In this document: positions 37,702 to 49,200 of the stretch, piece by piece
Layout of the letters: every line of letters starts with the position of its first letter
How positions within the stretch are numbered: the first letter of the stretch is position 1
Source: Verrucomicrobiota bacterium
GTDB taxonomy: Bacteria; Verrucomicrobiota; Verrucomicrobiia; Verrucomicrobiales; V1-33
NCBI GenBank assembly: GCA_040387795.1
Contig: JAZKDC010000017.1
Coordinates: 486,157-550,156 of the forward strand
Length of the DNA stretch: 64,000 nucleotides
Direction: 5' to 3'
Made by a program: the position numbers and the translations under genes
The notes under the pieces: model-generated
The model's input: only the letters and a program-made list of their open reading frames with translations
Databases searched by the model: none
Told to the model about the DNA's origin: nothing

Positions 37702-37844
37702 GTCCCACCTACGCTTCCCATCCTGGCCGCGTCATGGAAAAAGCGCGGATTTATTTTCCGGCGGCCCGGGGGAGGGAAATGGCAGGGAAAGAGGGGCGGA
37801 TTTCAATCTTGACGGAGTTAGGGCTGAAGTGTCAGTTTCCCGGG

Positions 37845-39083
37845 ATGGAAAATAAATTCCGCCTTCTCCTGATCATCCTGCTGGTGCTGGGGGCAGGCCT
37901 CTGGTGGTCCTCCCGGTCTGGTGAGGGAGCGAGCCCGGCCGCCAGTCCGGTTCCACCGGTGGTGACGACCACCAAATCATCCCCGAAGCGGCCCGCGGTG
38001 GCCATGGCCCCGGACCGGAAACGGGAGAGCCCACCGGCCGCGCCGTCCAGTGAGGCTGCTCAGGAAATCGAACGGCACAAAGCGATCGACCGCGAACACC
38101 TGACCAAGCTCCGCACCGGCATTTTTGCCTACAAGGCGAAGTATGGGCGCTATCCGGAGTACCTGACCCAGTTGGTTCCGGAATTCGTGACCGCGGACAC
38201 CCTGATTTCCCCCCATAAAAAAGCCGATGCGCAGGATTTTGCGGACATGGACCACCCGGACCCCGGCCTGGAAAAACCCTCCTATGGCTACGAGTTCAGC
38301 AATCTGGAATTCCGCGATGGACGGACGTTTGCCGAAATAAAGGAAGTCCAGCGCGCTGAGTGGGGGGACGCCATCCCGCTGCTGCGCTGTTTTGCCTACG
38401 GGGAGGTCATGAACATGGCCTATGGCGGCGATGTTTATGTAACCGCGCTGAATTGGGAATGGGATGCCGCGACGATGGATCTGGTGGATAAATATGGCTG
38501 GGGCCCGGGCCTGAAATCCGGGGAAATGGTGAAGGTGCGGGTCACGGGTGCCGACGGCCAACCGGTGGCCAACGCCCAGGTCTGGGCCGATGGACGCAAC
38601 TACTCCTTCGACCTTCCCAACCGCCCCTTTGCCACCGATGCGGAGGGGTATGCCACCATCCCCGTGGGAGCGGATATTGACCGCACCTCGCTGGTGCTCA
38701 GGGCAGAAGCCCCCGGTCTGTCGAGCGCCACCACCCGCTATCCCGCCGGGGCGTTGCCCGAAGGCCAGTCGATACTGCTGGGAGCCACAGAGCAGGTGGG
38801 CGGGGTGGCGCTGGATGCCTCCGGCCAGCCCATGGCCAATAGCCGGATTTATCTTAAAACCGGCGGCGCGGAAAACAACGCCGCTGCCACCGTGACTTCT
38901 GTCAGGACCGACGATCAGGGCCGTTGGCAGGCCGCGGTGCATCCGCAGGATCTTCCGGGCTTGTCCGCCCAGATCGGCATCCCGGGCGGCATGCCCGTGA
39001 AATATTTCCCCGGGCAACCTCTCGATCCCGGTGCTGCCAAGGCCGGCACCGCAGAAGTCCGGTTGCCCGCGGCACCGCAGTGA
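37845..39083 (+). CDS. Membrane-anchored protein with two carboxypeptidase-regulatory-like beta-sandwich repeats
   Basis: Start at the ATG at 37845 (MENKFRLLLIILLVLGAGLWW). C-terminal VKVRVTGADGQPVANAQVWADG...TDAEGYATIPV and VALDASGQPMANSRIYL...TDDQGRWQAAV. Confidence 0.6.
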   Translation: MENKFRLLLIILLVLGAGLWWSSRSGEGASPAASPVPPVVTTTKSSPKRPAVAMAPDRKRESPPAAPSSEAAQEIERHKAIDREHLTKLRTGIFAYKAKYGRYPEYLTQLVPEFVTADTLISPHKKADAQDFADMDHPDPGLEKPSYGYEFSNLEFRDGRTFAEIKEVQRAEWGDAIPLLRCFAYGEVMNMAYGGDVYVTALNWEWDAATMDLVDKYGWGPGLKSGEMVKVRVTGADGQPVANAQVWADGRNYSFDLPNRPFATDAEGYATIPVGADIDRTSLVLRAEAPGLSSATTRYPAGALPEGQSILLGATEQVGGVALDASGQPMANSRIYLKTGGAENNAAATVTSVRTDDQGRWQAAVHPQDLPGLSAQIGIPGGMPVKYFPGQPLDPGAAKAGTAEVRLPAAPQ

Positions 39084-39308
39084 GGAGGACTGGCCGCCCA
39101 CCCACCATGCTCCACTGCTGACCCGGCAGGAACGGGAACCCCCGGCAAAAGCCCCTGCCATCCCCGCGCCAAATTCCAGCCGCACAGCAAAACCAATACT
39201 TTTGATTGAGTAGGCGCTCGATTTTAAACCGGGAGGCTTTCCGGATGGGGGATTGGCAGCCGGGTCTGGTACAAATACGGCTTACCCGTTATTTTACATC
39301 TACAGGCC

Positions 39309-40052
39309 ATGACCGTCTCCGTCCTTACCCTCACCCTCCTTTCCGCCACGGCCCTCGCTGTGCAAGCCGCCTCCATTGGAGTGAACTTTTCAGAAAACGA
39401 CGGCAACCAGTCCTGGCTGACCACCAACACCCCGGTGGGCCCTACTGCCATCCCCAGCGGCTTCTTCAATACCAATAACAATCCCACCGGCGCGGCAGGC
39501 CTGCCGGTCCGGACCGGGTCCCTCGCTGCGGGGTCCCTGCTGGGCCTGATGGACAGCACGGGCGCGGTCACTTCCGCCAGTGTGGTCTGGAGTTCCGCCA
39601 ATGCCTGGTACAACGCGAGCGGCACCGGATCAGACCAAGCCAGACTCAGTGTGGGATATCTCGACGATGGCGGCGCCGGGGCCAGCATCACCTTTTCCTC
39701 CATCCCCTTCGCCCTGTATGATGTGTATATCCTGCTGGGTTCCGATGCCGGAGACACCCACACCTCTGAAATCCCGCGGGTGAATGGCACCAACGTGCTG
39801 GCCGCTGATTTTCCCGCTTTCGGCAACCTCACCGGATCGGGCGGAGGCTGGATTGAGGCCGATGGCACCAACCGCGGCAATTATGTTGTCGCCCGCGGCA
39901 TCAGCGGGGCCAGTGTCAACATCACCGGCCAGAATAGCACCGCCAACCGCATCGGCATCAGCGGGATCGTCATCAACCAGGTCCCTGAACCCTCCGCCGC
40001 CCTGCTCGGTCTCGGCGCGCTGGCCGGCCTGATCGTCCGCCGCCGCCGGTAA
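39309..40052 (+). CDS. PEP-CTERM sorting-domain secreted protein
   Basis: Signal peptide MTVSVLTLTLLSATALAVQA. C-terminus VPEPSAALLGLGALAGLIVRRRR. Confidence 0.8.
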   Translation: MTVSVLTLTLLSATALAVQAASIGVNFSENDGNQSWLTTNTPVGPTAIPSGFFNTNNNPTGAAGLPVRTGSLAAGSLLGLMDSTGAVTSASVVWSSANAWYNASGTGSDQARLSVGYLDDGGAGASITFSSIPFALYDVYILLGSDAGDTHTSEIPRVNGTNVLAADFPAFGNLTGSGGGWIEADGTNRGNYVVARGISGASVNITGQNSTANRIGISGIVINQVPEPSAALLGLGALAGLIVRRRR

Positions 40053-40130: not shown

Positions 40131-41903
40131 TCAGGGTCCGCCGATGAGGCTGCGGTAAACAGGGTCACCAAAAAAGACATAACCCTGCTCCGACAGGGGG
40201 GTGCCGGAAAGCAGCGCCTGCAGCAAACCATTGCGTTCCACCAATTTGGTATGGAGCACCGCCTGCCCCGGGTTTGCCATCAGGAGGAACGTCAGGCGGC
40301 CATCCCGGGCGGTGTGCCGGTGGAGCGGGCCCTCCACCTGCTCCGAAAAGGGAAAGGTTTTCCCCAGATCGTCCAGCATGGCGTGGCTGCGGCCCCACGT
40401 GCCGCCTTTTTCGCTGACAAACGTTTTTCCATTCAGCAGCGCCATGGAATCGTGGTAGGCGATCACCGTAAGGAACCGGTTCCCGCCGCCTGCCAACCAG
40501 GCCGTCAGCTTCGCGGCGTGACCCTTGGCCGCATCATAGGCATAGTTGCTGTCCAGAAAGGCGATCCGCTCCACGGCGCGGGGAATCTCCTCCAGACTGT
40601 CCAGATAACGGAAGATGAAGGCCCCGCCACCGCTGTGCCCGGTGAGCACCAGCTGGAGGGAAGGGGCGGCCACCGCCTGCCGCAGCTGATCAAGGATCGT
40701 GGCAATCCGTTTACCGCTGTCACCGTGCTTGCGGCACCACGCCGGCCAGGATTTTTCCGCGCATTCCACGTAGGCGGTCACCAGGGTGACTTCCGGCTGG
40801 TGAGCCCTCAGCCAGCGGGTCTGCGCGGCGATCTGTTGGAGGCCATGACGCCCGTCCCCGTCCGGAGCGGGAAGATGGCCCATGGTTTGTTCGATCGTAT
40901 TCCCGTTGGGCAGGGCATAGATGATCAACCGGACAGGGCGTCCTGGATCAGCGGCGGCCGGACGATTCACCACAACGCGCACCCCTGGTTCCGGCTCCAG
41001 GGTGAGGAGGGTCTCGCCAAAAGCCGCAGCCCGTTCGATTTCCGTTCTGACAGGGGCCGCGGGGGCAGCTGGGGAGGGCAGGGGTTCATCACTCAGAAGC
41101 CCCGCCGTTTTGGGATCGGTCAGGATCTGTTCCGCGGTGGTGTCGCGGCCGTTCAAGGTGACGGTTTTTCCGACCAGGCGGACGCCATGGCTGTAGTCCA
41201 CCCAAGTGTCGGCATGGCCGGTATACAGTGGCTGGATGGGTGTTCCGTCCGGCCGGTGCCAGCCATAGATCGCGACCTTTCCTGGAGTTCCGGCAAGGCG
41301 GGGGGTGGAGACGAGGTCCTTGTGGTGGCCGGCGGTGAGAGTGCCCCACGGATGGCCGGTCAGGACGGCCTGGCGTTGTCGGTGCACCGTTTCCTGATAT
41401 TCCAGAAAGGCCGCCACGGTGGTCATGTCGGGACCCGGCGGGCGGGGGGTGGGCGGCAGCTTCAGAGGCGCGGCAGCGTGGATCAGGTCCACCATTTTCC
41501 GGGTGGGCAGCACACAGTCGAGGCGGTCCGCGATCCGCCACGCGGTGCCGGGTGTGAGCGGGGTTTGGAAGAAATCCGCCTCCCGGCCTACCGCCAGATA
41601 GTCCGGGGAGACTTGCAGGATCAATTTATTCTCCCCCCCGGTCACCGTTATAGGCACAAACTGCCGCCAGAATTCCGGCACATTGCCTGACAGAATTTCC
41701 TGCTGCAGCACCGCCTCCCGTGCGGCGAGGTCCAATCCAGCCACGGCCTGCGCCACCGCCATGCCCCCGGGCGCACCGGCGGGACGGGCCGGCAGGTCAG
41801 GGGCAGCGTTGGCAACCTGACAGAACCACCACAGGCCCATCACGATCCTCGGCCTGGGTCGGCCATGACGGCGGGACCAGTTGAATAAAGGGGGCGGGCT
41901 CAC
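40131..41903 (-). CDS. Secreted two-domain protein: unknown His-rich N-domain + alpha/beta-hydrolase-like C-domain
   Basis: Probable signal peptide from the internal Met (MGLWWFCQVANA). N-domain motifs GHHKD, IYGWHRPDG, TGHAD, DYSHG. C-domain has a nucleophile-elbow-like LTGHSGGG plus IIYALPNG and IAFLDSNYAYD. Confidence 0.65.
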   Translation of the reverse strand: MSPPPLFNWSRRHGRPRPRIVMGLWWFCQVANAAPDLPARPAGAPGGMAVAQAVAGLDLAAREAVLQQEILSGNVPEFWRQFVPITVTGGENKLILQVSPDYLAVGREADFFQTPLTPGTAWRIADRLDCVLPTRKMVDLIHAAAPLKLPPTPRPPGPDMTTVAAFLEYQETVHRQRQAVLTGHPWGTLTAGHHKDLVSTPRLAGTPGKVAIYGWHRPDGTPIQPLYTGHADTWVDYSHGVRLVGKTVTLNGRDTTAEQILTDPKTAGLLSDEPLPSPAAPAAPVRTEIERAAAFGETLLTLEPEPGVRVVVNRPAAADPGRPVRLIIYALPNGNTIEQTMGHLPAPDGDGRHGLQQIAAQTRWLRAHQPEVTLVTAYVECAEKSWPAWCRKHGDSGKRIATILDQLRQAVAAPSLQLVLTGHSGGGAFIFRYLDSLEEIPRAVERIAFLDSNYAYDAAKGHAAKLTAWLAGGGNRFLTVIAYHDSMALLNGKTFVSEKGGTWGRSHAMLDDLGKTFPFSEQVEGPLHRHTARDGRLTFLLMANPGQAVLHTKLVERNGLLQALLSGTPLSEQGYVFFGDPVYRSLIGGP

Positions 41904-42062
41904 CTCCCGGCATTAATCCAAAAACGGCGGACCGGACAGGATAAATTACAGGTGCGGCGTAGCCGGCAGGAGCGCGTGTCCGGCTTTTCGGGATAAAAAT
42001 ACCCTGACAGGTTGCGGTTGCATAAAATCAATATCCGCTGGAAACGACATTCAGCATGTCCC

Positions 42063-44720
42063 ATGGAAGCAACGCTGGTTCAAAATAACCTGGTAGCCCG
42101 CAAAGCGGTGGAATTCCGGGTGCACAGTCTGCCGGCGGTGCCGCCGGCCCTGGCAGCGCTTTTCCCGGAAGTGGCCATCGGGGCTCCCCTCTCCCGCTGC
42201 GGCGCCCAGATGCTTTATGGAGCGCAGCTGCGGTCGGATGGGACCGCCTGTCTTGTATTGATAGTGGAAGCCGCCTCCTTCCGCGACGACCGTCACCGGC
42301 AACACTTCCTGGCGGGCCTGCCGCGGGTGCAGGCCATCCAGCATCCGCATCTCCTGAAGCTGCTCTGGATGGGGGAGCGCGGAGGAAACGTGTGTCTGGG
42401 TTACGAAGCCTTTGCCGGCGAATGCCTCTTCCCGGTGATGGATCGGTTTCTGATGGACCCACCCACCGTGGTCAGCATCACCGCCGCTCTCGGCGGAGCC
42501 CTCGAGGCCGCGCATGTTCAGGGCGTGATCCACCGGGATCTGAATCCTTCGTGGATCCTGATGGATGCCACGGGTGGCCTCAAGCTGGCCGGCATGGGGA
42601 TTGCGGCCCTGCTGCACGGGCCGGACGAGGCGTTCGCCAGCGTTTTGTTATGGCGTTCAGAGTATCTGAGATCCTATCCTGCTCCGGAACAGTTGAATCC
42701 GGCAGAGGCTTCGGATCACCAGGCGGATATCCATGCGCTGGGCATGATCACCTATGAATTGCTGACAGGAGCCCCGCCCGGGGGGTATGTCGGCCTCCCT
42801 TCGGCCCGGGCCGCGGTCGGGACCCATGTGGACCAGGTGATTTTCCGGGCCCTCCATTCCTCCCGGCCGGCCCGTTATCAATCGGCCGCTGAATTTGCCA
42901 GGGATGTGCAGTTGCTCTACGCCGCGCACCGCAATCAATACCTCCAGCAGGGACCGGCCCGGGAAAGTCAGGGCGGCGGCCCGGCCCCCCGCAAAAAGAA
43001 ACGGTTGCTACCCTGGCTGATCGCCGGAGCCGTGCTGGCCGTCATCGCTGCCTCCGGTTGGTGGTATCTCCACCCGGAAACCAGGGCGCGGGCCATGGCG
43101 GATGACGCGGAGAGCGAGGAGCAGATGAAGGAACTGGCGGCGGCCCTCTCAAAATCCCGGCCGGGCATGTCCAAGGACCAGAAAGAGGCCATCATGGCGG
43201 TGACCGGCAATCTCATGAGGCTGATGATGGAAAGCGCCATGGGAAGCCGGAAACTGGATCGGGGCACGGCGGCAGCCTGGCTGTTCATGCAGGCCGGCTT
43301 GGAGGACATGGCCTTGGAAGAGCTGTTGAAGCTGCAATTGGAAGCCCCTCCGGATTCAGTCGATTGGCGCCGGATCGAAGCCCTGATCCAGTTGATGCGG
43401 GGAGCGCGGGACGGATATGCGCCCGCCTGGGCAGCGGCCGATCAGGCCCGGCTGGCCAACGACCGGAGACGCGAACGGGCGGCCCTGGCCCGGGCGGCGG
43501 GATTCATTCCGAACCATGTGGGCCTGGCAGAAAGGGAACGGCAAAACGGCTATGATCCGGTGCCGGACCTCGAGGCCGTGCTCCGCCGCCTGCCCGGCGG
43601 GCCGGTAACTTATGCGGTCCGCACCCGGGGATTGATCCTGGAACTGGATCTGGCCCACAACAAAAACCTGACCAATCTGAGCGATCTGTCCGGTTTCCCT
43701 ATCACTCATCTGGACCTCAGTGGCACCGGGGTGGTGGATCTGTCGGCCCTCCGCGGGATGCCGCTCCATTCCCTGCTGCTGGACGATAGCCCCGTCCAAA
43801 GTCTCGCGCCCCTCGCTAATGGTTGCCTCGGATTGCTCACCGCCGAGGGCAGCCGGATTGCCGATCCGGAGCGCCTCGAAGCCTGCCCGGTGCTGGCGGA
43901 CTACCGGCTGACGGCCGCGGATGGCACCCTCTTCACCAAAACGGGCAGTCCTTCGTGGGACCGCCCATGGGTGAACTCGCTCGGCATGCAGATCCGCCCC
44001 ACCGCCTATCGCGGCACGGTGTTGATTTCCTCATGGGAAACGCGCGTCCAGGATTTCCAGCAGTTTGCCCGGGCGCACCCGGCGCCGGACGATCACGGCA
44101 TGATCGTGCAAACCCTGTCCGGGAAATGGGAGCGGTCCAAGGCGACCTGGCGGCAGGCCTCCCTGCCGAAAAACCAGACCGATCCGGTGGTGGGGATTAC
44201 CTGGCAGGAGGCAGCGGATTTTTGCGCCTGGCTGACGGCCAGTGAACAGCAGCAACGGATGCTTCCCGGCCGGGCCGCCTACCGGCTGGTCAGGAGTGGC
44301 GAATGGAACCAGGCAGCCGGCCATTTTTCAATCCCGCTGCGGGGTTCCTCGCCCCTCGTCACCAGCGGGCCTCTCTTCAGCTACGGCGGAAACCAGCCGC
44401 CCTCGTGGCAGCTTCCCTCCGCTGCGGCCATGGCAGGTCTGCGGTGGACCCGGCCCGCCCCCGCTCCGGCCGGCACCTTCCGCAGCCTCTTCGGCATCGC
44501 GGACCTCGGCAATCACGTCCGCGAATGGTCCAGCGAAGTGCCCACCGGAACCGGCGTCCTGCCCGGGGTGCATCTGGTGCGCGATCTTTCCCGCTCCGGC
44601 TCCCCGCCCACCGGCCGGTTGCCCACCGCGACCGGACAGGCCGAAGACCTGACCCGTTGGGAGGATCTGGGCTTCCGCATCGCCCTGCAACTGCCCCCGG
44701 TCCATGTCTTGGCAGAATAA
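42063..44720 (+). CDS. Ser/Thr-kinase-like (predicted pseudokinase) - LRR - FGE/SUMF1-domain fusion protein
   Basis: Kinase fold with HRDLNPSWIL (nt 42531..) and GMG in place of DFG (nt 42591-99); APE is retained. One TM (LLPWLIAGAVLAVIAASGWWYL). LRR-like LTNLSDLSGFPITHLDLSGTGVVDLSAL. C-terminal FGE-type motifs VVGITWQEAADFCAWLT, YRLVRSGEWNQAAG, GNHVREWS, GFRIAL. Confidence 0.8.
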   Translation: MEATLVQNNLVARKAVEFRVHSLPAVPPALAALFPEVAIGAPLSRCGAQMLYGAQLRSDGTACLVLIVEAASFRDDRHRQHFLAGLPRVQAIQHPHLLKLLWMGERGGNVCLGYEAFAGECLFPVMDRFLMDPPTVVSITAALGGALEAAHVQGVIHRDLNPSWILMDATGGLKLAGMGIAALLHGPDEAFASVLLWRSEYLRSYPAPEQLNPAEASDHQADIHALGMITYELLTGAPPGGYVGLPSARAAVGTHVDQVIFRALHSSRPARYQSAAEFARDVQLLYAAHRNQYLQQGPARESQGGGPAPRKKKRLLPWLIAGAVLAVIAASGWWYLHPETRARAMADDAESEEQMKELAAALSKSRPGMSKDQKEAIMAVTGNLMRLMMESAMGSRKLDRGTAAAWLFMQAGLEDMALEELLKLQLEAPPDSVDWRRIEALIQLMRGARDGYAPAWAAADQARLANDRRRERAALARAAGFIPNHVGLAERERQNGYDPVPDLEAVLRRLPGGPVTYAVRTRGLILELDLAHNKNLTNLSDLSGFPITHLDLSGTGVVDLSALRGMPLHSLLLDDSPVQSLAPLANGCLGLLTAEGSRIADPERLEACPVLADYRLTAADGTLFTKTGSPSWDRPWVNSLGMQIRPTAYRGTVLISSWETRVQDFQQFARAHPAPDDHGMIVQTLSGKWERSKATWRQASLPKNQTDPVVGITWQEAADFCAWLTASEQQQRMLPGRAAYRLVRSGEWNQAAGHFSIPLRGSSPLVTSGPLFSYGGNQPPSWQLPSAAAMAGLRWTRPAPAPAGTFRSLFGIADLGNHVREWSSEVPTGTGVLPGVHLVRDLSRSGSPPTGRLPTATGQAEDLTRWEDLGFRIALQLPPVHVLAE

Positions 44721-44828: not shown

Positions 44829-47159
44829 ATGAAACGCCCCCTTCCAATACCTACTTGGTTTTTATCGGGGGCAGTCCTCGTCCTCGCTCCGCTGGCGGCG
44901 CAGGCCGGGCCGCCCCTCGAGGAGTTGAAGCAGGAGTTCCGTCAAGTGGAGTCCGGGAATGATCCCCTCGCCCTGCTCCGGCGAGGCCGCCCGCTGCGGG
45001 ACCGGCTGGTGGAGGCGAAGGATTACCCGGCCGCCGCGGAGGTGGCATTGAAGGTCGCGTTTGCGGCGGACCTGCAGGGCACCCCCGCCGAGGCGGTGGA
45101 AGCGGCCGGGGAGGCCCGCCGGATTGTCGGACTTTCCCGCGCGGGGCGGATGCGGGCCTGGGATTGGATGCTCCAGGCCCAAATGTCAGGCCTGGCCGTC
45201 AAACACCTCATCCACGAAGGCCGCCTCAGCCTCGCCTCGCAGCGGCAGGCCGAAGCGTGGGAGTCCATCCGGCGCGGCGTGCGTGAGGAGACGGCGCGCG
45301 ATTGGCAGCCCGGCCCGTCGCTGCCTCCCGGGATCAGTGGGGATCTGCTGAACATCCTCCTGCGCACCGCCAGGTATGAGGGCGAGCTGCTTTCCCTTGC
45401 CGGGCGGAACGTCGAGGCCGTGGCCCGGATGCGGGCCCTGGAGGCGGATCTCACCCGGTCCGGGATGCCGCGCGGCCTGTATGGTGGACAATTGCTGGGG
45501 TTTCTGGTAGGAGAACAAAAGTTCCTTGGTTTCCGCACCGAGGCGCTGGCCCTGCAGGAGCGGTTGATTGCCCAGGCCGGACCGGACTCGTTTGCCCGCC
45601 ACAATGCGCTCTTCAACCGGGCCTACTGGCGCTCCCAATGGGAAGGGCCACTCCCGGAATTGCTCCAGGAAGCGAAGGCCGCGTCCGCTGCGGCCGGGGA
45701 AGCCAATAGCAATACCAGCAACACCCAGAGCCGGCGGCGGCTCCTCGCCAAAATGGCCTTTGCCTATCAGGACGCCGGATTTGAGATCGGGGATCTCGCA
45801 GCCCTCGTGAAGGAGGCCGAAGCCGCGGGGGACGAAATGGAAGCGCTCTACACCAGACGGGATCTCGCCGTGATCCAACGCCAGACAAGGGATTTCGCTC
45901 CGGCCGAAGCCAATCTTCTCACCGCCCTCACCGCCGCCCGCGCCGTGGGACGCAAACGCGCCGAACCCAACCTGTATCAGGAATACGCCATCCTGCTCCA
46001 GGAAACCGGCCGCCCCCGCGAGGCGATCCGCATGGCCCGGGAATCCATCCGCCTGACCAAATCATTCCAATGGACCCAGCACCTGCCAGGCCTGCTCCAC
46101 GTCCTCGCCAACGCCCAGCAGGCCGCCGGGGATGAGCCTGGATTGCGGGCCACCCTGGCAGAATTGGAGGGACTGCTGGCGTCCGGTAAATTGGAGGCCT
46201 ACCGTGCCCTTGATGCCGGCGTGGCCATCGCGCTGTGCCAGCACGCCCTCGCCCGGCCACAGGAAGGCGCGGCCACTCTGCAACGGGCCCTCGCCGCCGC
46301 CCGTCAACAAGGCGTGCCCGCCTGGCAGATTGATCTGGCGGAGAAATTCCCCTTCGGTGACCTGACCCCGGCCAAGTCCACACCCGGACCGCCCTTGGCT
46401 GATTTGCAGCCGCTCAAGATCCACTCCACCGTCCTTCCTGACCAAACCGCCCGCGTCCGATTCACCCTCTCCAATCCGTCCGCCTCCGCCGCCACGGGCA
46501 CCCTGGTGGTGGAAGGAGAGCACCTCTCGGTCGATTGGCAGGACACCGCGGGAGTGGGCCGGATCAGCCTGCTGCCCAGCGGAGGGGATCGCGTGGTGCG
46601 CCGGCCGGTGAGTCTCGCGGCTGGAGAGGAATTTCTGCTGATCGCGGAAGCCGCCGGCGGGCTGCAGGGTACGGTCAACGTACGTTGGGAAGCCGCCGGC
46701 GGTGCCGTCCAACAGTCCGGCTGGACCCTGACTTCCAGCGGAACCGATGGCACCGACCTCGCTGTCAGCAATGCCAGTCTCGCGGGCCGGAATCCCTTCT
46801 ACGCCCTCAGACTGCATCATGCCCTGTATCGCCGCGGGGGTGACCCTGCCGCCCCGGTGGACCTCCGGGTGGCCGCCTCGCGGCCCATGCGCATCGAACT
46901 CCTGAATCCTGACACCGGTGAGTTGCTGGCGGTGGATGCCAACGGCGACGGCCAGCTCGATGGCCCGGGGGACGTCCTCCTGGCCGACGCCAATCACGAT
47001 GGTTTCGCTGATCTGCTCTGCGCTTCCGGCACCCCCGCGGAAGTCGCCCTCCTGATCTATCCCCTGACGACTACAGAACCGCCGGGCGAACTGTCCCTTG
47101 ATATCCAACTCCGCAATGCCCCCGGCTGGGGAACCGCCGCCCGGAATCTCCTCAAGTAG
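44829..47159 (+). CDS. Secreted TPR-like / beta-sandwich protein with Ca-binding-type DxNxDG motifs
   Basis: ATG at 44829 gives signal peptide MKRPLPIPTWFLSGAVLVLAPLAAQA. Helical N-terminal ~500 aa, then a beta-rich region, then DANGDGQLDGPGD and DANHDGFADL. Confidence 0.7.
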   Translation: MKRPLPIPTWFLSGAVLVLAPLAAQAGPPLEELKQEFRQVESGNDPLALLRRGRPLRDRLVEAKDYPAAAEVALKVAFAADLQGTPAEAVEAAGEARRIVGLSRAGRMRAWDWMLQAQMSGLAVKHLIHEGRLSLASQRQAEAWESIRRGVREETARDWQPGPSLPPGISGDLLNILLRTARYEGELLSLAGRNVEAVARMRALEADLTRSGMPRGLYGGQLLGFLVGEQKFLGFRTEALALQERLIAQAGPDSFARHNALFNRAYWRSQWEGPLPELLQEAKAASAAAGEANSNTSNTQSRRRLLAKMAFAYQDAGFEIGDLAALVKEAEAAGDEMEALYTRRDLAVIQRQTRDFAPAEANLLTALTAARAVGRKRAEPNLYQEYAILLQETGRPREAIRMARESIRLTKSFQWTQHLPGLLHVLANAQQAAGDEPGLRATLAELEGLLASGKLEAYRALDAGVAIALCQHALARPQEGAATLQRALAAARQQGVPAWQIDLAEKFPFGDLTPAKSTPGPPLADLQPLKIHSTVLPDQTARVRFTLSNPSASAATGTLVVEGEHLSVDWQDTAGVGRISLLPSGGDRVVRRPVSLAAGEEFLLIAEAAGGLQGTVNVRWEAAGGAVQQSGWTLTSSGTDGTDLAVSNASLAGRNPFYALRLHHALYRRGGDPAAPVDLRVAASRPMRIELLNPDTGELLAVDANGDGQLDGPGDVLLADANHDGFADLLCASGTPAEVALLIYPLTTTEPPGELSLDIQLRNAPGWGTAARNLLK

Positions 47160-47181
47160 CCGCCGGGGCGGCTTGCATTTT
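47158..47181 (+). terminator. Weak terminator-like hairpin
   Basis: AGCCG(47158-62)-CCGGGG-CGGCT(47169-73)-TGCATTTT. Confidence 0.35.
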
Positions 47182-48313: not shown

Positions 48314-48405
48314 GAGAGGAAATCTGAGGCACTTGAAGTTTGCCGGCTTGGCTAATATCGTTAATGCGGTCTCCGCCGGACCGCAAATGTCCGACCGATC
48401 TGCCT

Positions 48406-49062
48406 ATGCCGTCATCCTTTATCGAGTTCCAACGCTGCCACGACCTGGAAACCGTTGAAGAAATCAAAACCGTTCTGGGGCGCGGGGGGATACCCTATCA
48501 ATTAGCCTCTTCCGCCGGGATATCCAGCGAATCGTGGATGGGGATGTCAGGACGGGACGCGGGCGGAACCATCATTGTCCAGGTGCCCGCAGACCAGTGC
48601 GGAGCGGCGATGGCGGCGATGGCTAAGGAATACCTCAAGTCCGGCCTTCCAAATGATCATTTCCTGCATCGGGCCAGCGATGATGATTTGACTGCCATGC
48701 TGGGTGAAGCCAATACGTGGAACCCTTATGATATGGCACATGCCCGGCGATTGATTGAGGAGCGTGGCATTGACCCGGCGGCCGTCGCTGCCAGGAAAGC
48801 GGAATATCAGCGGAAATTGACCTTGGGCCGCCGCCCTCCCGCAGGACTCGTGGCCGCAGGGTGGATCTGTGCGTTCCTCGGTGGCATCTTCGGTGCAGTA
48901 ATCGGCTGGTCGCTCTCTTCCTCCAAGGACACCACACCAGCAGGAGAGTTCTACACTTACGATGAAGCCTCGCGGAAAACCGGTCACACCATTTTAGCCC
49001 TCTCCTGCCTGAGCAGCGCTCTGATTTTTCTCCTAATGGCCTACCGCCGTCTAGCCGATTGA
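48406..49062 (+). CDS. Hypothetical protein with soluble N-domain and C-terminal TM helices
   Basis: Start at the ATG at 48406 (MPSSFIEFQRCHDLETVEEIKTVL...). Two C-terminal hydrophobic helices. No confident family. Confidence 0.55.
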   Translation: MPSSFIEFQRCHDLETVEEIKTVLGRGGIPYQLASSAGISSESWMGMSGRDAGGTIIVQVPADQCGAAMAAMAKEYLKSGLPNDHFLHRASDDDLTAMLGEANTWNPYDMAHARRLIEERGIDPAAVAARKAEYQRKLTLGRRPPAGLVAAGWICAFLGGIFGAVIGWSLSSSKDTTPAGEFYTYDEASRKTGHTILALSCLSSALIFLLMAYRRLAD

Positions 49063-49069
49063 CCAGACG

Positions 49070-49105
49070 GCTCCGGCCCCGGGATTTGGGAGGCATGGCC
49101 GGAGC
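49070..49105 (+). terminator. Stem-loop after gene 48406..49062
   Basis: Perfect 9-bp arms GCTCCGGCC (49070-78) / GGCCGGAGC (49097-105) with an 18-nt loop. No clean T-run. Confidence 0.35.
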
Positions 49106-49200
49106 TCCCCGGTTATTTCAAATCAGAAATCTTCGGCCATCCCCGTTCTGATCCTTTCCCAGCGATTGCGCTGATTCCGTATTCATCAGAGACTGACGCC

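Follow-up and report, generated by a model that had tools for sequence, protein, structure and literature searches.

The gene and its domains

The stretch of DNA analysed here, 64,000 nucleotides of a contig from a Verrucomicrobiota bacterium (hereafter the window), carries on its forward strand a complete gene for an 885-residue protein that is predicted to be a receptor-like pseudokinase. Its open reading frame (ORF), 42012/42063-44720 (+), is the only long frame of its region with homologues. Translation probably begins at the ATG at 42063, since the orthologues in L001 (94% amino acid identity) and L009 (75%) share a Met-Glu N-terminus; an in-frame TTG at 42012 is likewise open upstream. 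L001 is a 6.3-Mb metagenome-assembled chromosome (OW818657.1) with which the window is collinear over 32-55 kb. Pfam recognised a Pkinase domain (PF00069) spanning residues 80-239 with 73.1 bits (E = 3e-20, cut-off 31.7) and an FGE-sulfatase domain (PF03781) of the formylglycine-generating enzyme (FGE) type at residues 662-825 (E = 1.4e-9, 38.4 bits, cut-off 23.3), and NCBIfam gave generic kinase matches below threshold together with a weak PorK/GldK match. From the N-terminus the protein consists of a Hanks-type kinase fold, a transmembrane (TM) helix, a helical domain, four internalin-like leucine-rich repeats (LRRs) and an FGE/SUMF1 fold (Table 1). A first-pass annotation, made from the letters of the window, had placed HRD at 42531-42539, GMG at 42591-42599, APE (within YPAPEQL) at 42681-42689 and LVRDLSRSG at 44574-44600, and all of these positions proved exact.

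Table 1. Coordinates of the gene, its domains and motifs, and the neighbouring downstream gene (AF2, AlphaFold2; HMM, hidden Markov model; TPR, tetratricopeptide repeat; dN/dS, ratio of nonsynonymous to synonymous substitution rates).
Feature	Position	Strand	Basis or remark
Complete gene, predicted receptor-like pseudokinase, 885 aa + stop	42063..44720	+	ORF list, orthologue N-termini, Pfam
Hanks-type kinase-like (predicted pseudokinase) domain, residues 36-300	42168..42962	+	Pfam Pkinase, AF2, fold matches, dN/dS
Degenerate glycine-rich loop LSRCGAQMLYGA, GxGxxG replaced by SxCxxQ	42189..42224	+	HMM alignment
β3 strand CLVLIV, VAIK Ala to Leu (L64) and Lys to Leu (L66)	42249..42266	+	HMM alignment
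αC-helix Glu to Gly (G85)	42315..42317	+	HMM alignment
Catalytic loop HRDLNPSW, Lys to Asn (N161) and Asn to Trp (W164)	42531..42554	+	Alignments to PknE, StkP, HMM
GMG at the Mg-binding DFG site, Asp to Gly (G177)	42591..42599	+	HMM alignment
APE, kept after the family-specific activation segment R198...L-R203-x-Y	42681..42689	+	HMM alignment
RKKKR and single TM helix LLPWLIAGAVLAVIAASGWWYL, residues 310-336	42990..43070	+	Kyte-Doolittle, AF2
Family-specific α-helical domain, ~8 helices, residues 351-525	43113..43637	+	AF2
Four internalin-like LRRs (21-23 aa) and cap, residues 524-632	43632..43958	+	Repeats read in sequence, AF2, Foldseek
Predicted non-catalytic FGE/SUMF1-type (C-type-lectin-like) domain, residues 633-885	43959..44717	+	Pfam, profile matches
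Neighbouring gene, 776-aa secreted TPR-like protein, not shown to be part of the feature	44829..47159	+	Possibly co-transcribed

The Kyte-Doolittle profile of the protein has a single peak, at residues 315-336 (43005-43070), flanked N-terminally by RKKKR. Under the positive-inside rule this arrangement would put the kinase-like domain in the cytoplasm and the LRR-FGE part outside, which agrees with the one-helix, receptor-like layout proposed in the first-pass annotation. That layout had missed a helical domain of about 175 residues between the TM helix and the LRRs, for which the AF2 model of the ectodomain (residues 351-885; mean predicted local distance difference test, pLDDT, of 72, with the C-terminal FGE loops below 50) contains about eight helices over residues 351-510 at a domain pLDDT of 62-93. 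No Pfam or NCBIfam model matched this domain, Foldseek returned weak TPR-like matches at most, and one relative has a sub-threshold TPR_16 match. The LRR-like repeats noted earlier at about 43650-43820 are present, though with a longer extent: four are legible from 43632 to about 43892, followed by the cap (pLDDT 85-93). They agree with the internalin type, whose tandem repeats of 21-22 residues follow LxxLxLxxTxVxDLxxL and form a solenoid, and Foldseek matched them to InlB (E = 8e-4, root-mean-square deviation 2.3 Å over 98 columns) and InlH. Pfam LRR models stayed below threshold on the window protein, and relatives carry LRR_4 matches just under the cut-off.

In profile comparisons the C-terminal domain matched PorK/GldK (E = 1e-19), pFGE/SUMF2, PvdO and CalU17, with the best matches at E = 1e-19 to 1e-15; against the true FGE structures 6muj, 2q17 and 1y1e the values were 1e-12 to 1e-11, and the PorK/GldK ring proteins are its closest solved sequence relatives. 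It belongs to the subtype WVNSLGM...ETRVxDF...FCxWLT...YRLPTxxEW...GNVxEW...GFR, as found in P0124-P0132. The FGE fold is accompanied by neither the copper-binding Cys pair nor the RGGSW-type motif: the sole Cys of the domain is C721, in the structural FCxWL motif, the REW-GFR segment contains none, and VRDLSR (within LVRDLSRSG) stands where the nearest relatives read LRG[AG]SW. The first-pass annotation had noted the deviant motif and proposed a check of the Cu/Cys site. Because the Cys pair is absent and RGxSW is replaced by RDLSR, the C-terminal domain is, judged from its residues, a non-catalytic FGE/C-type-lectin-like fold.

Catalytic positions, selection and family

Residues of the kinase-like domain were mapped by three alignments: phmmer against Protein Data Bank (PDB) chains (PknE, StkP), MAFFT with 120 kinase matches, and hmmalign of 262 kinase domains, of which 224 canonical kinases served as the reference set. 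Twenty-two family members were examined at the catalytic positions. The phmmer alignments pair HRDLNPSW with HRDVKPEN of PknE and HRDLKPQN of StkP, AGMG with DFG, and CLVLIV with VAVKVL. Among the canonical kinases, the β3 Lys, αC Glu, HRD Asp, catalytic-loop Asn and DFG Asp are each present in 224/224, the catalytic-loop Lys in 222/224, the VAIK Ala, a catalytic-spine residue in contact with adenine, in 219/224, and the three glycines of the glycine-rich loop (G-loop) in 194, 214 and 210 of 224. The window protein has S44, C46 and Q49 at the glycine positions, L64 for the Ala, L66 for the β3 Lys, G85 for the αC Glu, N161 and W164 for the catalytic-loop Lys and Asn, and G177 for the DFG Asp. 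The wider family follows suit: the Ala position is Leu in 11/22 members; the β3 Lys position reads Leu in 12, His in 5 and Lys in 1, the rest being unaligned; the αC Glu position is never Glu (G 8, D 3, R 2, N 2 and S 2 among others); Trp replaces the catalytic-loop Asn in 12/22; and the DFG Asp is found in 0/22, with Gly in 17/22.

Other hallmarks of the fold are kept in the window protein, namely H157, R158, D159, the APE Glu (E209), D222 of αF and R271 of subdomain XI. Across the family the APE Glu is present in 20/22 members, and the HRD Asp remains in 13/22 and is lost in 9/22. The activation segment has its full length plus an insert of four residues, R203 among them, and other residues stand where canonical kinases have T190, G197 and T198. 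It carries a conserved family motif, R-x-x-x-L-R-x-Y-[LP]-A-P-E, while none of the canonical phospho-acceptor Thr residues is present, a pattern that would fit a fixed, non-phosphoregulated conformation.

Relocated equivalents of the lost Lys, Asn or Asp, which the first-pass annotation had named as possible evidence against its reading, were not found nearby: residues 58-72 include no basic residue, and the first acidic residues to follow GMG are D188 and E189. A WNK-like relocated Lys was rejected, as the orthologues have Q, H, R or Q at the G-loop position, which is not conserved. By the sequence definition of a pseudokinase (at least one of VAIK Lys, HRD Asp and DFG Asp missing), two of the three are lost (Lys and DFG Asp), and the features of a competent kinase, the Lys-Glu salt bridge, GxGxxG, HRDxKxxN and the DFG Asp, are likewise missing. 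Canonical phosphate transfer is not expected because the ATP-phosphate-binding, Mg2+-binding and substrate-orienting residues are gone, and we consider it very probable that the domain is catalytically dead. The earlier prediction of a Hanks-type pseudokinase with HRD and APE retained is thus borne out by Pfam, AF2 and the comparison with the 224 canonical kinases. The three catalytic losses that it listed all map to catalytic positions, but the count was too low: seven canonical positions are lost, and the G-loop glycines (SxCxxQ), the VAIK Ala (L64) and the αC Glu (G85) had been left out.

The fold itself appears intact. An AF2 model of residues 1-350, built from a 44-sequence alignment, reached a pLDDT of about 95 over residues 30-290 and contains β1-β5, αC, αE and αF in canonical order, with the TM helix at 316-336. 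Its best PDB matches in Foldseek were PknI and PknB of Mycobacterium tuberculosis (E = 4.5e-17), the former with a target-normalised TM-score of 0.79. Selection was estimated as pairwise dN/dS (Nei-Gojobori) against the orthologues in L001, L009 and L010. Values were 0.12-0.34 across all modules and 0.12, 0.18 and 0.25, respectively, for the kinase-like domain, which is equal to or below the other modules and has the highest amino acid identity of all (82% against L009, where the FGE domain reaches 73%). Because dN/dS is low in every module and the kinase-like domain is best conserved, the gene is not decaying.

The catalytic-site substitutions are common to orthologues at 41-94% identity. P0001-P0005 (92-41%) read HRD[LF]NP[SG]W, with the exception of P0005 (HRDLGSPG), [AV]G[MVTI]G at the DFG site and C-L-[LV]-L in β3; none of the close orthologues departs from H157, R158 and D159. 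The orthologue comparison suggested in the first-pass annotation thus came out in its favour, the substitutions being shared by P0001-P0005 and by the wider family. The start of P0004 (846 aa, from a Verrucomicrobiales metagenome-assembled genome, MAG) is mis-called: an upstream frame (L012:~760-952) encodes the missing N-lobe and reads ...TQGGDQILY...CLLLLIG..., with the same Lys-to-Leu change.

A word-indexed homology search yielded only five full-length orthologues, and the same kind of search with the family alignment returned just close orthologues and canonical kinases. The wider family came from an exhaustive HMM profile search of 1.84 billion cluster representatives, which added about 17 representatives with the order kinase-like, TM, (helical), LRR, FGE. 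These proteins (P0139-P0142, P0144, P0145, P0169, P0175, P0180, P0186, P0196, P0232, P0244, P0263 and P0274, plus fragments) have 812-1127 residues and match the whole profile in one piece. Four module HMMs identified the kinase-like, (helical), single LRR-block and single FGE modules in all added members, and every one is degenerate, the DFG Asp being absent always and the β3 Lys and catalytic-loop Asn in nearly all. The catalytic-loop NPxW and activation-segment RxxxLRxYLAPE motifs are kept across members of 25-35% identity. None of the 224 canonical kinases of the same retrieval has the family's domain order; they are arranged as kinase-FGE×1-5, kinase-LRR×5-17 or kinase-FGE-LRR×n. In a neighbour-joining tree rooted on a PASTA kinase, the 19 placeable members form an exclusive clade with the canonical kinase P0178 as sister, a grouping that could be affected by long-branch attraction but is independently supported by the shared ectodomain. 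The window gene is therefore a member of a monophyletic, throughout degenerate Verrucomicrobiota family and not a one-off fusion.

As far as named members show, the family is restricted to Verrucomicrobiota: they derive from Verrucomicrobiales, Verrucomicrobiae and Verrucomicrobiota MAGs and from a soil metagenome. Named members, including P0140, P0286 and P0289, are annotated as "SUMF1/EgtB/PvdO family nonheme iron enzyme", and P0004 as "protein kinase". Some members, such as P0175 (Pfam Lectin_C, E = 1.6e-7) and P0196, have an extra C-terminal C-type lectin domain. A related protein of 518 residues, P0121 (L013:10001-11557; also in L014 and L015), consists of the helical-LRR-FGE part only, at 43% identity to residues 351-885. 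It has no kinase-like domain, TM helix or signal peptide, and is in effect a naturally truncated form without the pseudokinase half. In each of three independent contigs its start lies 50 nt behind a gene for an ABC-transporter ATPase.

Genomic neighbourhood

The pseudokinase gene is separated from the downstream 776-aa gene by a gap of about 100 nt that contains no terminator-like site, and a hairpin lies at the end of the latter gene (47158-47173). The downstream gene is kept only beside the 94% and 75% orthologues and is absent beside more distant ones, on which grounds we rejected it as a conserved operon partner. A phmmer search against all ORFs of at least 100 aa in the window for a kinase paralogue matched only the query protein, and Pfam, NCBIfam and PADLOC found no kinase, phosphatase, FHA or defence gene among the neighbours. 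PADLOC matches to PD-T4-6, mad6 and PglW are generic kinase-domain matches with no defence context, and a defence-system kinase was accordingly rejected.

The G+C content of the window is 59-67%. Upstream, a divergent gene for a 590-aa protein (40131-41903, minus strand), whose only match is a sub-threshold α/β-hydrolase, is present in L001 and largely deleted in L009, which retains an 82-aa remnant of its 3' end. Further upstream on the plus strand lie genes for a PEP-CTERM-anchored 247-aa protein (39309-40052) and a 449-aa protein with Big_1/CarboxypepD_reg domains (37734-39083), both conserved in L009; the genes at 37734-40052 fit a Verrucomicrobiota-type exosortase cargo neighbourhood. Downstream, a stretch of about 880 bp (48316-49198) with a 240-aa ORF (48340-49062) of no Pfam match is absent in both syntenic relatives, L001 and L009, reflecting either an insertion in the lineage of the window or a deletion in the other two. 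The segment 16382-16698 holds a 62-nt unit in three direct copies, which share 73-82% identity, are spaced 105 and 150 nt apart and by eye encode EF-hand-like repeats of the form ...KFDxDKDGxLSEAER....

Proposed function and comparison with known systems

Because the kinase domain lacks nearly all catalytic residues yet is strongly conserved, signalling by partner binding and not by phosphorylation is suggested. The route through scaffolding or some further partner that the first-pass annotation put forward is likewise the most plausible reading. We propose, with a probability of roughly 60%, that the protein is a receptor-like pseudokinase in which a ligand-binding ectodomain is coupled to a pseudokinase that serves as a scaffold or allosteric switch. 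As a single-pass membrane protein of receptor-like layout with its kinase-like domain in the cytoplasm, it would most likely bind a ligand, and not catalyse, through its periplasmic helical-LRR-FGE part; FGE folds acting as sensors or structural modules are known from STAND proteins (PMC13581612) and PorK (PMC12421860). Binding of the ligand would cause a conformational or oligomeric change that is passed to the pseudokinase domain, which may then act by protein contacts: either it would pair, as allosteric or dimerisation partner, with an active Hanks kinase whose gene lies elsewhere in the genome, or it would offer such a kinase a docking scaffold. For this scaffold or allosteric output taken by itself we consider the odds about even. 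The dimerisation mode is modelled on the back-to-back activation of PknB and the phospho-docking mode on MviN-FhaA (PMC12599244). In MviN, bulky residues complete the catalytic spine (C-spine) and abolish ATP binding; the protein is phosphorylated by PknB, upon which it recruits FhaA, and it forms a back-to-back dimer, while EssB/YukC provides a precedent for a scaffold pseudokinase (PMC12599244). By analogy, the adenine pocket of the window protein is probably filled by L64, L66, C46 and Q49.

Several observations weigh against this proposal. The invariant HRD triad of the close orthologues leaves room for residual or unusual chemistry, and the domain might still bind a nucleotide. The 64-kb window encodes no partner kinase, FHA protein or phosphatase, and P0003, P0004, P0005 and P0140 each lie among other genes, such that no partner is supported by context. 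The model of the ectodomain is of moderate confidence only, and P0121 shows that the helical-LRR-FGE module can persist alone.

The last of these points, together with the missing partner and the PorK/GldK ring proteins as closest solved relatives of the FGE domain, would also suit a non-signalling role, in which the helical-LRR-FGE part is a structural or adhesive component of the envelope, as in PorK, and the kinase-like domain a mere folded cytoplasmic anchor. We regard this as unlikely, though it is the strongest of the alternatives. The kinase-like domain is the most conserved module, the persistence of NPxW and RxxxLRxYLAPE at such low overall identity is hard to explain for a mere anchor, and P0121, found in three contigs, has no signal peptide or TM helix and so offers no evidence for a free module working in the periplasm.

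An atypical active enzyme, which would bind nucleotide and perform phosphotransfer or another reaction through relocated or unconventional residues, seems less probable still. There are precedents in WNK, CASK, DLHK-type predictions and SidJ-type alternative chemistries, and the HRD triad, with its Asp in 13 of the 22 members, and the strong purifying selection on the kinase-like domain could be read in this way; moreover, some pseudokinases without the β3 Lys still bind ATP (PMC12599244; bioRxiv 10.1101/2025.01.12.632604). However, the seven canonical positions are gone together, among them both metal ligands (Asn to Trp and Asp to Gly), and Leu at the VAIK Ala position would be expected to clash with adenine. 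Catalysis is also not the conserved function of the family, because the HRD Asp itself is lost in the remaining members.

The many lost catalytic residues might suggest a decaying kinase relic with no selected function, but such a pseudogene is highly improbable and was rejected on the dN/dS values, which are low in every module against three orthologues; in addition, the 885-codon frame is intact and these substitutions have become fixed throughout a deep family. FGE-sulfatase/CLec folds are common targets of diversity-generating retroelements (DGRs), TvpA (2y3c) is among the FGE-profile matches, and within the domain variation is greatest, and model confidence lowest, in the C-terminal loops. 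A DGR variable region is nonetheless the least credible reading of all and was rejected within the 64-kb window, where the 3' end of the gene (44300-44720) has no second copy that could be a template or variable repeat and where the five direct-repeat families all lie outside this segment.

We therefore return to the receptor-like pseudokinase for comparison with known systems. Bacterial Hanks-type pseudokinases are a young field, with seven families catalogued in 2025, of which, to our knowledge, almost none has been studied experimentally. In the accessible parts of an atlas of bacterial serine/threonine kinases and of a review, these families are ActPs1-3, GLW, CP1, DYD and DLHK; none is linked there to an LRR or FGE domain, and FGE-sulfatase is mentioned only with the canonical Proteo1 (bioRxiv 10.1101/2025.01.12.632604; PMC12599244). 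Judged by these partial descriptions, the window family fits none of the seven.

A close parallel is MviN (Rv3910, ActPs3) of M. tuberculosis, likewise a membrane-anchored Hanks-type pseudokinase with an extracytoplasmic binding domain, whose ATP pocket is filled by bulky hydrophobic residues and which works non-catalytically (PMC12599244), features that the window protein may share. ActPs3 is defined by loss of the HRD Asp and DFG and by a deletion of about 40 residues in the activation loop; MviN, which lacks HRD and has a shortened activation loop, is fused to a MurJ-type flippase and is actinobacterial, whereas the window protein is verrucomicrobial, keeps HRD, APE and a full-length activation segment with a 4-residue insert, and carries a helical-LRR-FGE ectodomain; it thus falls outside ActPs3. 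The GLW family, which like DLHK was described by O'Boyle et al. (2025), resembles the window protein in its poly-Leu β3 strand and C-terminal TM helix, but is mainly proteobacterial and has HRD replaced by GLW in 99-100% of members (PMC12599244, bioRxiv 10.1101/2025.01.12.632604), whereas H157, R158 and D159 are retained here. DLHK likewise combines a retained HRD Asp with a degraded β3 Lys and DFG, but is cytosolic, fused to helicase/DNA2 and retains the catalytic-loop Asn (PMC12599244, bioRxiv 10.1101/2025.01.12.632604); the window protein has a TM helix, no helicase domain in Pfam and Trp for Asn.

The window family is probably a new one within the membrane-anchored bacterial Hanks pseudokinases, the published families having been compared by description only. 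The locus points to a further family that is coherent and deep, with every member degenerate and a clear receptor layout, and full-text literature searches yielded no description of a pseudokinase with FGE-sulfatase or of a Verrucomicrobia pseudokinase like the window protein. Not surprising in principle, it is a clean, deep and apparently undescribed example of a bacterial receptor pseudokinase, and offers a natural system for asking how a dead kinase passes a signal across the bacterial membrane and what FGE-fold sensor domains recognise. It also exposes an annotation problem: members are named "serine/threonine protein kinase" or "SUMF1/EgtB/PvdO family nonheme iron enzyme" in databases, although neither of the activities so suggested can be reconciled with the sequences.

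Single modules have parallels elsewhere. Canonical Verrucomicrobiota/Planctomycetota kinases with FGE or LRR domains (such as P0006, P0158 and P0178; Proteo1-type kinase-TM-FGE) share the ALFPExxI pre-kinase motif, the position of the TM helix, the FGE subtype WVNSLGM...ETRVxDF...FCxWLT and the 21-22-residue LRR type, but keep all catalytic residues and are built with FGE×2-5, LRR×5-17 or FGE-LRR×n, never as helical-LRR×4-FGE. PknI of M. tuberculosis, the best structural match of the modelled kinase-like domain, has kept its catalytic Lys, Asp and Asn, and a low level of activity can be measured for it. PorK/GldK, pFGE (SUMF2) and PvdO, like the window FGE domain, have the FGE-sulfatase fold without the catalytic Cys pair, but they are lipoproteins or soluble, lack a kinase-like fusion and keep the RGGSW-type motif.

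Eukaryotic receptor pseudokinases, such as BIR2 among the plant leucine-rich repeat receptor-like kinases (LRR-RLKs) as well as HER3, RYK, ROR and PTK7, combine a ligand-binding ectodomain, one TM helix and a dead kinase that partners an active one. They are alike in principle, LRRs included, but their ectodomain is N-terminal, whereas in the window protein it is the kinase-like domain that comes first, and their origin is independent. We tentatively suggest, as a less likely extension of the proposal, that the window gene is the founding case of an eighth, phylum-specific bacterial pseudokinase family, in which an LRR receptor pseudokinase would allosterically switch an active Hanks kinase in response to an envelope or environmental ligand. 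If true, it would be a convergent counterpart of HER3 and of the pseudokinases among plant LRR-RLKs.

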